From Gammaproteobacteria bacterium (GTDB taxonomy: Bacteria > Pseudomonadota > Gammaproteobacteria > JASBUN01), in the NCBI GenBank assembly GCA_030147845.1, contig JASBUN010000046.1, positions 64,430 to 128,429 on the forward strand: DNA of 64,000 bases, in the 5' to 3' direction. The notes below the pieces were generated by a model. The model was not told where the DNA came from, did not search any database, and was given only the letters and a program-made list of their open reading frames with translations. This document shows positions 34,001-41,395 of this stretch, piece by piece. A program made the position numbers and the translations under genes. Within the stretch, counting starts at the first letter, position 1. Every line of letters begins with the position of its first letter.

Positions 34001-34988
34001 GAATATGCACGTCGAATTCTATTTTTCCGTCGTCGACATCCTCGCGCGCAACGATTTCGTCAGCGAACCCAGACCTTTGATACAAACGTGAAAGCGCCGC
34101 CGGGCATTCGAACAGTACCCGCCCGCCCGCTTGCAGCACGCGCGGCAAATAGCGCGCGAATTGCAGCGTGTCGCCGAAGCCCTGTTCGGACCAGACCAGG
34201 ATGCGGCGCCCGTTCAGCGCCGCACCGTCCCAGCGCGGAACAGAAAAACTGCGCTGCACGCGCTCGCCACACGCAAAGCCCCACTCATACTCCGGCCAGC
34301 CGCGTGCAAAATCGCCTAATTGCAGCCACAACAGTGAACGGTTCCAGTGCGCCTGCGGCAGTTGTGGCGACAAGCCCAAGGCGCGTTCATAGAATTCAAG
34401 CGCACCGTCAAATTGACCAAGCGCCTGCAACGCGTTGCCGACGTTGCTGTAGGTCGCCGCATGTCCCGGCCGTATCTCCAGCGCCTGCCGGTAGCAATCG
34501 ATGGCTCGACCCGGCTCACCGCGCTGTTTGACCACGTTACCTAAATTGACCAGAGCATCAAAGTAGCGCGGACGCAGACTGATCGCGCGCAACAGGTGGC
34601 TCTCGGCGTCCTCCAAGTGGCCGAGAGCACGTAGCGCAACGGCGTAGTTATTGTGCAACTCGGCGTTGCCCGACTGCATAGGCAACGCCATGCTATACAC
34701 CTCGGCCGCTGCACCCGCCTCGCCGTTGGCGAAGAAGGCGCTGCCGAGCAGTTGATACAAAGCGACCAAGCTCGGGTTTTGCTCCAAGCCGCGCTGGCAA
34801 TGCACGATCAGTTCCGGATAACGGTGCTGCGCGAGGAGCAGCTCACCGAGACGTATCAGTGTATCGGCATGGGCCGGTTGCGCTAGCAACAACGCGCGAT
34901 AGCGATGCTCGCTCTCTACCTCACCGCCCTCGCTCGCCCGGGCATGCGCGTTCAGCGGCAACACTCTCATTTTCCGCCCGCGGCGCAC
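31062..34988 (-). CDS. A 1308-aa multidomain protein: TPR, a GT9 (heptosyltransferase-like) domain, TPR, and an OGT-like GT41 domain.
   Basis: It carries the GT9 signature ([24 protein letters not shown]...W). Its C-terminal module is paralogous to the preceding gene ([18 protein letters not shown]...[28 protein letters not shown]). Confidence 0.8.
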   Translation of the reverse strand: [1308 protein letters not shown]

Positions 34989-40900: not shown

Positions 40901-41395
40901 AGCCGGCTCCACCGGCACCTTGAGATACGGCGCGATACGCGCCTGCATGTGCTCGTTTAATGTCAGTGAGTCGTGACTAACGATGACGCGAATGGCGCTC
41001 TTGTACTCGTCCCCGAGCGCCAATCTTCCCCACCACGCATAATGCACGACAACCAGGTCCGGTTGGATTTTCTGGAACAGGTCACGAAAAGCGTCAAGAA
41101 GCCATGGCGGATTGAAGCGGCTCCAACTGTTTGGCGCCTTACCCCCTTGCCGCGCCGTGTAGAGCGCATCTAACCAGTCACCACCGTAGTAATATACCTG
41201 TGCGCCGAATTCGGTGTTCAGATAATCAACCGCTTCTTTGCTCCACGGAATATCGGTCGAAACAGAAGTCCCGAAAACATGCAGCTCATAGCCGATACTC
41301 GCCAACGCCCGAAGTATCGCCAGTTCACTTCGATGTGTGCCGGTTTGTGGCGGATACGGACAGTAGGGATCAAATACCAGCGCTTTCAATTTCAT
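34967..41395 (-). CDS. A 2142-aa cytoplasmic protein made of about six glycosyltransferase modules (GT4, GT2, GT4, GT2-like, GT2, GT4-like).
   Basis: Repeated GT-A signatures are present (ISIITPALNCAAYI...VVDGGSDD...NADD; VSIIVPTRNRRDVL...VVDNQTDD...NNDT). GT-B C-terminal signatures are also present (HRAEGFGLGMMEAMALGKPVIAT). There are no transmembrane segments. Confidence 0.8.
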   Translation of the reverse strand: MKLKALVFDPYCPYPPQTGTHRSELAILRALASIGYELHVFGTSVSTDIPWSKEAVDYLNTEFGAQVYYYGGDWLDALYTARQGGKAPNSWSRFNPPWLLDAFRDLFQKIQPDLVVVHYAWWGRLALGDEYKSAIRVIVSHDSLTLNEHMQARIAPYLKVPVEPAAVNPAALSENFYSGIDLSTLLAGAEEYAIYDNYDVTVAFSSLDAKLIQNHTSQTLVEEIPITYEIVNVDNSYDSAPVLVVSDYCLNIQGYAYFAANVLPTVRSACPEFVLKVIGGACNKIVPVAGVELAGYVAELSDVYTRSRFAICPVIGGTGMQVKILESMAYGVPVIALRNVADQSPIEHGKNGLIARNAQEFARFVVELWRDPERCKTLGSAARETIRQNFCADVQAGRWQQMLDAVQTRRGVRSARQHTNVECLGADGASTRKIGVQSHDARSAPRQTDGVNMREAVESTRRRGVQGCGAKISIITPALNCAAYIRQCIDSVLAQGYDNFEHIVVDGGSDDQTLDILRDYPHVHWISEPDRGEPDALNKALEMASGDIIGWLNADDFYLEGALVTAAEALDPGAGVHLIYGNVVLLGENDHPIGIRVPPPTMDLQRLLRWHRPLHIFQPAMFFTAELIRAVGRFREDLPYAVDLDFWVRAALAGYRFCNVDRTFAKMRLLRADGKSVTPYARKDQDWLAACLPAVAELSGVQQTHFWKDYYVHRLVNDHLYGGESLRMPDSCPATLGLALATIDANAAQDGAAYLEKAVELHPDCEDLYWLLGEALNQIGERSRAEQMFAAGDRVRLRCADVKPAIQRAPMQVDDAVVTVTDMDVPRKQKLNIGVNVIGYVSGNLGVGVTARSVVQVLLDQGCSVAVYDVDPGAGRGKFDRCFERFCVDAVTDLPHAINLFVFPLADLSGFISKYPEIIQNPARFNACWCVWELAVLPRGWSDALQSMDVLIAQSDFIRHALAFSVSGVPVLSAKHPLPEQGTSSPQRDRFGLPDKATIFISSFDLNSDPERKNPAATLAAFQHAFADDQSAHLVIKLNGASGAGERRAWVKDLRDYCGVRANVHLITDTLSYSDVLSLYASCDVFVSLHRAEGFGLGMMEAMALGKPVIATGWSGNMSFMDHTNACLVNYRLVPVQASINAYSRERVGADAVWADADIEQAAKWMYRLASDPALRASIGEAACQAAAKYQSDAKRADFLSELAAIAAQRAVRPAPIPHADEVEVEHESSDKVTVEPYSEWIRHRGHRADAERAHAQETIDGLVHKPTIHVIIVVDEDSIEHLAKTIDSMSAQLYGGWGLTVVSAMACPDPMFEELDMLEWIHAEREIAAAIDAAVATTAADWVTLLEPGDQLDAGALLACAKFAERNPSIGFVYTDEDTVDVDGARSHPRFKPDLNLELLRSCAYVGSFCLVKGTVLAAIGGVVSLGSLVNHDLCLRVVETFGGEAVGHIADVLVHQLEVNARRREVTSEQGMSLVEGHLTRAGVDAKVEPGLATGSFLIDYQHSAQPLVSIIVPTRNRRDVLEPCLESLLHKTGYKNFEVIVVDNQTDDQRTLRYLDEVAQRHKRVSVVRYDHPFNYSAINNVAASQACGDYLLLLNNDTVIVQPNWLDRLMSQAQRPDVGAVGPRLVFPDQRIQHAGVVLGMGQNGVAEHPFFGAPMSIAGPMNIAQSPRDVSALTGACLLIRKSIYEQVGGMDEDQLAVMYNDVDLCLKVREHGFRVVWTPYSTAVHHGSASLKDGHYQDAKKWQQAKNEVAVMLERWLPKLARDPAYNRNLNLIRTDYSVDSEMCAQWDDGADGPRILGMSLGSSGSRQHRLDIPMQALRRARRATTHLLPECIERVRVPSVSELAREAPDILLAHNTLHDVQLEALDRYRRFNKDVFLVFGQDDLIDHLPSYNSFSTSVYPDVKKRLRRAMSACHRLLVSTEALAQAYRGWSDDIVVVPNYLDGSIWKALKSRRGRGDKPRVGWAGAQQHSGDLDIIHEVVKKTASEVQWVFFGLCFEEWLSLGVEVHNPVVFEQYPNTLAALDLDLAVAPLAHNRFNQCKSNLKLLEYGALGWPVVCTDIEPYRDAPVTRVANTSAAWIKAIRERVNDLDASRREGDALRAWTHEHWMLDDHFDDWLQGLGTEGAAAGACAAGGK

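Follow-up and report, generated by a model that had tools for sequence, protein, structure and literature searches.

The 64,000-nucleotide (nt) stretch of DNA analyzed here (the window; positions 64,430 to 128,429 of contig JASBUN010000046.1 in the Gammaproteobacteria bacterium assembly GCA_030147845.1) encodes a protein of 2142 amino acids (aa) that joins six glycosyltransferase (GT) modules in one chain and is referred to as the multi-GT. Its gene is intact and under selection and occupies the flgL-fliC interval of a polar flagellar cluster, which bears out the flagellar context claimed in an earlier note on this DNA. The multi-GT is fairly likely to work as an "assembly line" in the cytoplasm, as a soluble glycosyltransferase belonging to a flagellin glycosylation island.

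The multi-GT open reading frame (ORF; 34967..41395, minus strand) begins with an ATG at 41395, closely preceded by a Shine-Dalgarno-like GGACGG, and is free of stop codons. The contiguous 6.4-kb frame described in the earlier note is confirmed by the ORF and its translation. It is also supported by three sequences of equal length (2142 aa) found in other assemblies, which are 100%, 98.9%, and 91.5% identical to the multi-GT and contain no indels. The identical copy (NCBI P0297) is located on a 240-kb contig, and the 91.5% orthologue, which also aligns without indels, occupies a fully syntenic locus (L002). Comparison of the multi-GT with this orthologue by the Nei-Gojobori method gave a synonymous divergence (dS) of 0.29 and a ratio of nonsynonymous to synonymous divergence (dN/dS) of 0.14 overall, with values of 0.07–0.25 in the six modules; the linkers and the C-terminal tail have values of 0.27–0.59. 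Such a low ratio at this synonymous divergence therefore shows that the frame is held by selection across all module junctions. Recent internal duplication was considered as the source of the repeated GT modules and rejected, and a collapsed repeat is likewise unlikely, since no two modules exceed 33% identity.

A 19-residue Kyte-Doolittle scan of the whole protein revealed no evident transmembrane segment, as the earlier note had stated. The hydrophobicity peak (mean of 1.84) is found at aa 1407–1425, and a membrane anchor at this position was rejected, as the residues are buried in the core of the fourth module (M4) in an AlphaFold model with a predicted local distance difference test score (pLDDT) above 90. 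Because the peak sits within a confidently modeled globular domain, the multi-GT is predicted to be soluble.

Modules of the multi-GT

Pfam was run on the full-length protein and separately on six segments. The profile search finds multiple GT domains, with passing matches for M1, M2, M3, and M5, and the earlier count of three GT-A and three GT-B modules in one polypeptide stands, one of the GT-A modules (M4) being probably non-catalytic. NCBIfam models gave nothing above cut-off for the whole multi-GT, M4, or M6. All module coordinates given below are on the minus strand.

The N-terminal half begins with M1 (aa 1–420, 40136..41395), a GT-B module of GT4-like type that matches Glyco_trans_1_4 (4e-19; 69.7 bits against a cut-off of 27) and, weakly, the N-lobe family Glyco_transf_4. 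The GGTG..K..E motif of M1 is kept in homologues of 36–50% identity and its dN/dS is 0.10; of the E-x7-E pair of GT4 enzymes, it retains the second Glu only. The following linker (aa 421–468, 39992..40135) has no domain match, is 62.5% identical to the orthologue, and is unconserved in homologues; its dN/dS of 0.59 therefore points to relaxed selection. M2 (aa 469–700, 39296..39991) is a canonical GT2 module of the GT-A fold, scoring 92.6 bits against the Glycos_transf_2 cut-off of 23.3 (3.5e-26) with both DGGSDD and NADD present. Its VVDGGSDD and WLNADD (DXD) motifs are invariant among homologues, its dN/dS is 0.07, and its best sequence match in the PDB is the A2 domain of the chondroitin polymerase K4CP (2z86/2z87, 2.6e-18). 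A helical spacer resembling tetratricopeptide repeats (TPR; aa 701–829, 38909..39295; TPR_19, 1e-5 at aa 744–796; dN/dS of 0.17) separates M2 from M3 and also occurs in proteins P0002–P0009. M3 (aa 830–1210, 37766..38908) is a GT4 module of the GT-B fold, with matches to Glycos_transf_1 (3e-16; 59.9 bits against a cut-off of 26.4) and GT4-conflict (3e-9) and with the E-x7-E pair in EGFGLGMMEAM; HRAEGFGLGMMEAMALGKPV is conserved among its homologues, and its dN/dS is 0.16. A second linker (aa 1211–1262, 37610..37765; dN/dS of 0.27) has no domain match and ends, in the AlphaFold model, in a long helix leading into M4 (segment residues 2–29).

The C-terminal core consists of M4, M5, and M6. M4 (aa 1263–1508, 36872..37609) is the module containing IHVIIVVDEDS...TDEDTVDVDG that the earlier note had described as degenerate and GT2-like. 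Its Pfam GT2 match is below threshold (E-value of 0.043; 14.2 bits against 23.3), the nucleotide-binding Asp is replaced (VSAMAC), and the DXD motif has become PGD. In alignment with canonical GT2 relatives, SAMAC stands in the place of DDxS and PGD in that of DXD, and the YTDED and FKPD..LLRS motifs are kept. Profile-profile comparison of M4 and M5 (hhalign) gave an E-value of 2e-5 and a collinear match over 194 columns. The AlphaFold model of M4-M5-M6 is a rigid unit (pLDDT of 92.8, predicted template modeling score of 0.91) in which M4 is packed against both M5 and M6, and no multi-domain counterpart to this model was found among solved structures. M4 is thus GT-A-like and not a bona fide GT2 enzyme, because the Asp and the DXD are lost while the fold and the collinearity with GT2 modules stay, and it is probably non-catalytic, judging by its motifs. 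The earlier description holds in that M4 lacks these residues and evolves somewhat faster than the other modules (dN/dS of 0.25 versus 0.07–0.16), but M4 is not a case of one-off decay, since the same losses are the rule across 58–121 family members, in which the YxDED / FKPD block is retained.

M5 (aa 1509–1799, 35999..36871) is a GT2 module of the GT-A fold that matches Glyco_tranf_2_3 (9e-24) and Glycos_transf_2 (2e-22) at 80–85 bits, and its VDN and NNDT motifs are family-invariant. VVDN, LLLNNDT, and YNDVDLCLK vary little or not at all across 58–121 homologues, the dN/dS is 0.10, and the best PDB sequence match is the Pasteurella heparosan synthase 8vh7 (2e-6). M6 (aa 1800–2142 and the stop codon, 34967..35998) is a complete GT-B module that stays below the Glyco_trans_1_4 threshold (21.5 bits against 27) and that does not combine a GT4 / Glycos_transf_1 match above threshold with E-x7-E; a PDB sequence search with M6 gave no meaningful match. 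The M6 family is large and has 22 invariant columns, all of which are present in the window protein; a Lys and a Glu of the FN..KS...LEY stretch are invariant. Five modules (M1 GT4-like, M2 GT2, M3 GT4, M5 GT2, and M6 GT-B) keep the motifs of their families, and their motifs for donor binding and catalysis are conserved in homologues of 36–55% identity.

These features also bear on a different possibility, that only one or two modules are active, that others beyond M4 are pseudo-GT scaffolds or flagellin-binding domains, and that just one or two sugars are added. M4 would be a precedent, as a dead GT-A domain retained under selection in this lineage, and the single Glu of M1, the sub-threshold score of M6, and the Pseudomonas relatives of ~1100–1200 aa that are each credited with a single transfer (PMC3927599) fit such a protein. 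The conserved donor-binding and catalytic motifs of M2, M3, M5, and M6, together with dN/dS values in these four modules (0.07–0.16) that are below the value of M4, argue against it, and we regard it as rather unlikely.

Flagellar linkage and mosaic relationships

Pfam annotation, which covered the island genes plus about 20 further ORFs, identified the window as a Pseudomonas-type polar flagellar cluster. The flagellar and chemotaxis genes include cheZ, flhF, flhA, fliI, fliK, fliF, fleR/fleS/fleQ, a tPilZ gene, fliD, and fliC, and further genes are flgL/K/J/I/H, flgE, cheR, cheV, flgA, flgN, and ycgR. The gene order is flgJ-flgK-flgL, five island genes, and fliC-fliD, with fleQ/fleSR, flhA, and flhF nearby.

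A protein bearing M6 is found beside fliC in a flagellar cluster in all seven contexts that could be read (the window, L002, L008, L009, L010, L011, and L012). Where both ends are visible, its gene lies between flgL and fliC, and the arrangement of the window is repeated in L002 and L009–L012. In L010 and L011, the M6-bearing protein is the only glycosyltransferase of the island and is encoded directly upstream of flagellin; it must therefore itself act on flagellin, provided that this protein is glycosylated by the island. A metagenome scan extended this comparison to 80 loci, 36 with the full M4-M5-M6 and 44 with M4-M5 but no M6. Flagellar genes were present in the flanks of 28 of the 36 loci with M6 and of one of the 44 without it (Fisher p of 2.6e-13), and half of the eight flagellar-negative M6 loci (4/8) have less than 600 nt of sequence on the downstream side. 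The distance from the end of the M6-bearing gene to the flagellin start is 100–330 nt in many loci. Because of this difference between loci with and without M6, M6 appears to be the flagellum-specific part of the core, and M4-M5 a more general cassette that is reused outside flagellar glycosylation. The 43 non-flagellar loci among the 44 with an M4-M5 tandem and no M6 fall within L046–L092 and include loci from human gut metagenomes (e.g., L072–L075).

The multi-GT is a mosaic of modules that occur separately elsewhere. Two proteins of ~1700 aa (P0002 and P0003) match aa 1–1222 (M1-M2-TPR-M3) with 50% identity, three proteins of ~1340 aa (P0183, P0194, and P0196) match aa 828–2139 (M3-M4-M5-M6) with 46–49% identity, and M3 is common to both of these partial architectures. 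A protein of 878 aa (P0177) matches aa 1268–2142 end to end with 54% identity and is encoded by a stand-alone gene in the sister island L009. The flagellin of L009 and its TPR-GT41 protein are 81% and 47% identical, respectively, to those of the window.

The M4-M5-M6 block has more than 6000 protein matches at E ≤ 1e-20, and the best 120 of them cover 87–100% of the query with 40–55% identity and are 806–1582 aa long. A profile search with M6 against 1.84 billion representatives gave 2749 matches at E ≤ 1e-30, and among the best 150 of these representatives, M6 is almost always C-terminal. Two metagenomic loci contain other giant frames that end in M4-M5-M6 and carry different N-terminal GT2 add-ons: a 2199-aa frame in L013 (5993–12592), which adjoins flagellin, and a frame of at least 2330 aa in L014 (1–6993), near which no flagellar gene was detected. 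In this family, the C-terminal core is conserved and the transferase modules at the N-terminus vary, and the window protein is one instance of this general design. The earlier note had called the protein larger than its counterparts, which is correct in comparison with characterized enzymes only; within the family, proteins of more than 2000 aa ending in M6 are common (17 of the best 150 M6 representatives, in addition to the two frames above), and the size of the multi-GT is not exceptional.

The nearest relatives that can be tied to studied systems are found in Pseudomonas. M5-M6 is collinear with the P. aeruginosa protein P0164 (37% identity, E-value of 1e-103), which is seemingly truncated at its N-terminus (604 aa) and whose gene is directly upstream of a 394-aa flagellin gene, taken as a-type. 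This position is one that we take to be the slot of OrfN in strain PAK. Placement and sequence together strongly suggest that the multi-GT belongs to the Fgt1/Fgt2/VioT/OrfN-type family of flagellin islands. In P. syringae, the Fgt1 and Fgt2 genes are upstream of fliC, Fgt1 transfers rhamnose to flagellin serines, and six serines between positions 143 and 201 of the flagellin are glycosylated; VioT has 1173 aa and is 40% identical to OrfN of PAK (PMC3927599). The GT2 enzyme PA1091/FgtA is required for glycosylation of b-type flagellin, which is unglycosylated without it (PMC11833859). The multi-GT shares with these enzymes the flgL-fliC slot in a FleQ/FleSR-type polar flagellar cluster and the nature of a large, soluble, multidomain protein containing GT2, and the 280-aa flagellin of the window resembles that of P. 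syringae in being short with exposed residues rich in Ser/Thr. On the other hand, the multi-GT is about twice the size of the Pseudomonas enzymes, with three extra modules fused at the N-terminus (GT4-GT2-TPR-GT4), and the phosphotransferase part of PA1091 (PMC11833859) was undetected in it. The islands also differ, as that of the window has two OGT-like GT41 enzymes and a protein combining methyltransferase (MT) and GT2 domains, and has no viosamine- or rhamnose-type sugar genes.

The glycosylation island and its regulation

The five island genes are all encoded on the minus strand. At the flgL end, a 501-aa protein (44521..46026) matches TPR families only, with the repeats confined to its C-terminal half and no family match in the N-terminal ~250 aa; counterparts are found in the same slot after flgL in L002, L009 (45% identical), and L012. 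The upstream partner of the multi-GT is the 859-aa MT-TPR-GT2 protein (41438..44017; Methyltransf_23, 3e-11; TPR_19; Glycos_transf_2, 3.5e-24), whose gene ends 42 nt before the multi-GT start. The downstream partner is a TPR-GT41 protein (31062..34970) of ~1302 aa that resembles O-GlcNAc transferases (OGTs), with a Glyco_transf_41 match of 3e-119 and many TPRs. Its ATG overlaps the multi-GT stop codon (ATGA, 34967–34970), and the same 4-nt overlap occurs in the L002 orthologue, which suggests translational coupling of the two genes; the ORF start called mechanically (GTG at 34988) is probably too far upstream. A second OGT-like TPR-GT41 protein (646 aa, 29108..31048; Glyco_transf_41, 2.5e-110) matches human OGT with an E-value of 2.8e-127 and has the histidine of DHPT and the lysine of FNxxYKIDP, and the downstream GT41 partners match Xanthomonas XcOGT at 4e-88. 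The gaps between the genes for MT-TPR-GT2, the multi-GT, and the two TPR-GT41 proteins are 42, -4, and 13 nt. In L009, there is a single GT41 protein of 1328 aa, and the 646-aa protein aligns with its C-terminal half, which suggests that the tandem GT41 genes reflect a duplication. The presumed acceptor, the flagellin (28044..28886, minus strand; Flagellin_N and Flagellin_C), has 24 Ser/Thr among the 60 residues of its center (aa 141–200).

GT41 genes are recurrent in the flagellin glycosylation islands of enterobacteria, according to a survey in which no single island had both GT2 and GT41 enzymes (PMC4875605). Unlike the islands surveyed, that of the window combines the two. The likeness to GT41 OGTs such as human OGT and XcOGT, with their TPR arrays and catalytic His and Lys, is confined to the two neighbors of the multi-GT and does not extend to the multi-GT itself.

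A perfect sigma-54 -24/-12 element (TGGCACATGAATTGC; 44228..44242, minus strand) precedes the glycosyltransferase operon, 211 nt ahead of its first gene. Exact matches to TGGCAC-N5-TTGC occur four times in the window, compared with 0.28 expected, and all are intergenic and on the minus strand; the other three are upstream of fliK (14305–14319), fliD (27577–27591), and the flgB region (56428–56442). As the element before the glycosyltransferase operon matches those before flagellar operons, the sequence argues for co-regulation of this operon with the flagellar hierarchy. The element at 44228 follows a very AT-rich stretch. A sigma-28 consensus scan gave no convincing site before the island or fliC; the best sigma-28-like site in the window (59433–59459, plus strand; TAAAG-N14-GCCGATAT, one mismatch) is upstream of the flgM/flgN region.

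Sister islands are richer in sugar genes. L003–L007, L010, and L011, which encode related multi-GT proteins, contain heptose-type genes (SIS, GHMP kinase, HAD, and nucleotidyltransferase) and dTDP-sugar genes, along with genes for C-methyltransferases, aminotransferases, and sulfotransferases, none of which are found in the window island. This gene content hints at very different flagellin glycans in those loci, possibly sulfated or C-methylated. At the edge of the flagellar cluster in the window, there is also a stand-alone GT2 ORF of 232 aa (61965–62663, minus strand), which adjoins a RelA/SpoT C-terminal (TGS-ACT) fragment running towards the window end.

Proposed function, alternatives, and significance

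For the O-glycosylation of flagellin, stepwise transfer of sugars from nucleotide sugars at the cytoplasmic face has been proposed (PMC3958885). In the mechanism proposed for the window island, Ser/Thr residues of flagellin would be glycosylated in the cytoplasm before flagellar type III export, with sugars taken directly from nucleotide sugars and no lipid carrier. The first sugar could be attached by the OGT-like GT41 enzymes (as O-GlcNAc) or by the Fgt/OrfN-like M5-M6 pair, after which M1, M2, M3, and whichever of M5 and M6 is left, as the other presumably active modules, may add one residue each, and one multi-GT polypeptide could form up to five linkages. The MT-GT2 neighbor would then add and methylate the terminal residue. 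M4 may serve against M5 and M6 as a non-catalytic scaffold or acceptor-binding domain, and the fusion of modules would keep successive active sites together on a protein-bound acceptor.

Several points weigh against this proposal. Intact motifs are not proof of activity, and that flagellin is glycosylated in this organism is itself something that we infer. The kinship to Fgt1, Fgt2, VioT, and OrfN rests on position and one P. aeruginosa protein, and about four M6-bearing loci with usable flanks show no flagellar gene. Furthermore, the window island contains no genes for nucleotide-sugar biosynthesis, unlike the sister islands L003–L007, L010, and L011, so the sugar donors probably come from the common metabolite pool or from pathways encoded elsewhere in the genome. 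A more far-reaching version of the assembly-line proposal, which is offered tentatively and is unlikely to hold, is that M6 domains are new flagellin-specific GT-B protein O-glycosyltransferases or docking domains with M4 as the acceptor-presenting partner, and that the giant fusions (the multi-GT and the forms of 2000–2570 aa) are lipid-free, co-linear assembly lines in which the order and identity of N-terminal modules dictate the glycan sequence.

The earlier note had likened the protein to WbdA and WsaE. WbdA is the mannosyltransferase of the E. coli O8/O9/O9a polymannose O-antigen; it has GT4 modules only, acts on an acceptor linked to undecaprenyl pyrophosphate, and works with the terminator WbdD and an ABC transporter. 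WsaE is a methyl-rhamnosyltransferase of the Geobacillus stearothermophilus S-layer glycan, a multifunctional chain extender in which an N-terminal SAM methyltransferase is joined to GT2 rhamnosyltransferase domains, and this glycan is lipid-linked and transferred outside the cytoplasm. Like WbdA, the multi-GT is one soluble polypeptide with more than one GT module, and WbdA adds several residues successively. Unlike WbdA, its relatives are linked to the flagellum, and genes for a WbdA-type terminator, ABC transporter, or undecaprenyl-pyrophosphate primer were not found by Pfam among the island genes and the ~20 other ORFs scanned, which are not every ORF of the window. The architecture of WsaE is absent from the multi-GT, in which Pfam detected no methyltransferase domain over the whole protein; the combination of methyltransferase and GT2 is found instead in the neighboring 859-aa protein. 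The resemblance was therefore not upheld, as the nearest relatives are multidomain GTs of flagellin islands and the M4-M5-M6 family, with its thousands of matches, is at home between flgL and fliC; the analogy to WbdA and WsaE is functional at best.

The corresponding functional alternative is that the location in the flagellar cluster is incidental and that the multi-GT extends or polymerizes a lipid-linked surface polysaccharide (O-antigen, capsule, or S-layer glycan). Such pathways typically involve multi-GT polypeptides in which GT2 modules are mixed with GT4 modules. In sequence, M2 and M5 resemble E. coli K4CP and the Pasteurella heparosan synthase, respectively, which are bifunctional polymerases with tandem GT-A domains in one chain. 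Moreover, M4-M5 pairs without M6 are found in non-flagellar loci, some sources name M6 relatives "O-antigen biosynthesis protein", and the MT-GT2 neighbor is reminiscent of methylated chain terminators. However, the window ORFs scanned gave hits to flagellar or chemotaxis genes only and included no phosphoglycosyltransferase for initiation, no ABC transporter, no Wzx/Wzy, and no ligase, the M6 architecture is tightly tied to flgL-fliC intervals, the sigma-54 element of the operon resembles those of the surrounding flagellar operons, and the partner proteins are OGT-like protein glycosyltransferases with TPR arrays. Taken together, a role in lipid-linked polysaccharide synthesis is quite improbable.

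A protein substrate other than the filament flagellin, such as FlgL, FliD, hook proteins, or non-flagellar proteins reached through the TPR proteins of the island, is more doubtful still. Four island proteins contain TPRs through which other clients might be recruited, an OGT homologue from a cyanobacterium is reported to modify a pilin (bioRxiv 10.1101/2021.07.06.449578), and the tie of the multi-GT to FliC is one that we infer. Against these points, the family gene is usually immediately upstream of flagellin and co-directional with it, the window flagellin has the typical exposed segment rich in Ser/Thr, and the characterized relatives act on flagellin (PMC3927599, PMC11833859). Finally, it is highly improbable that the long ORF was created by faulty assembly or annotation, through chimeric joins or sequencing errors that fused genes: split versions do exist, as the separate 878-aa gene of L009 illustrates, but four independent 2142-aa sequences of 91.5–100% identity agree without indels, the frame is selected across the junctions (dS of ~0.29, dN/dS of 0.14), and overlapping partial architectures span every junction.

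The flagellin-island reading of the multi-GT has implications for a group of enzymes that is mostly uncharacterized, although the glycans on flagellin affect motility, recognition by the immune system, and surface properties. To our knowledge, there is no structure for Fgt/OrfN-type enzymes. The locus dissects this family into a conserved, apparently dead GT-A domain, a putatively active GT2 module, and a flagellum-specific GT-B module that is missed by current Pfam and NCBIfam models, and the series of fusions and fissions indicates which extra transferases cooperate with the core. It is also an example of OGT-like GT41 enzymes and GT2/GT4 modules coexisting in one flagellin island. If the modules do act in series, such proteins would be compact tools for lipid-free protein glycoengineering, and if the order and identity of N-terminal modules did dictate the glycan sequence, glycan structure would be readable from domain architecture. 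The multi-GT thus adds to a theme that is already known: as an unusually long protein of an enzyme family that is widespread but little studied, it does not represent a system of a new kind.

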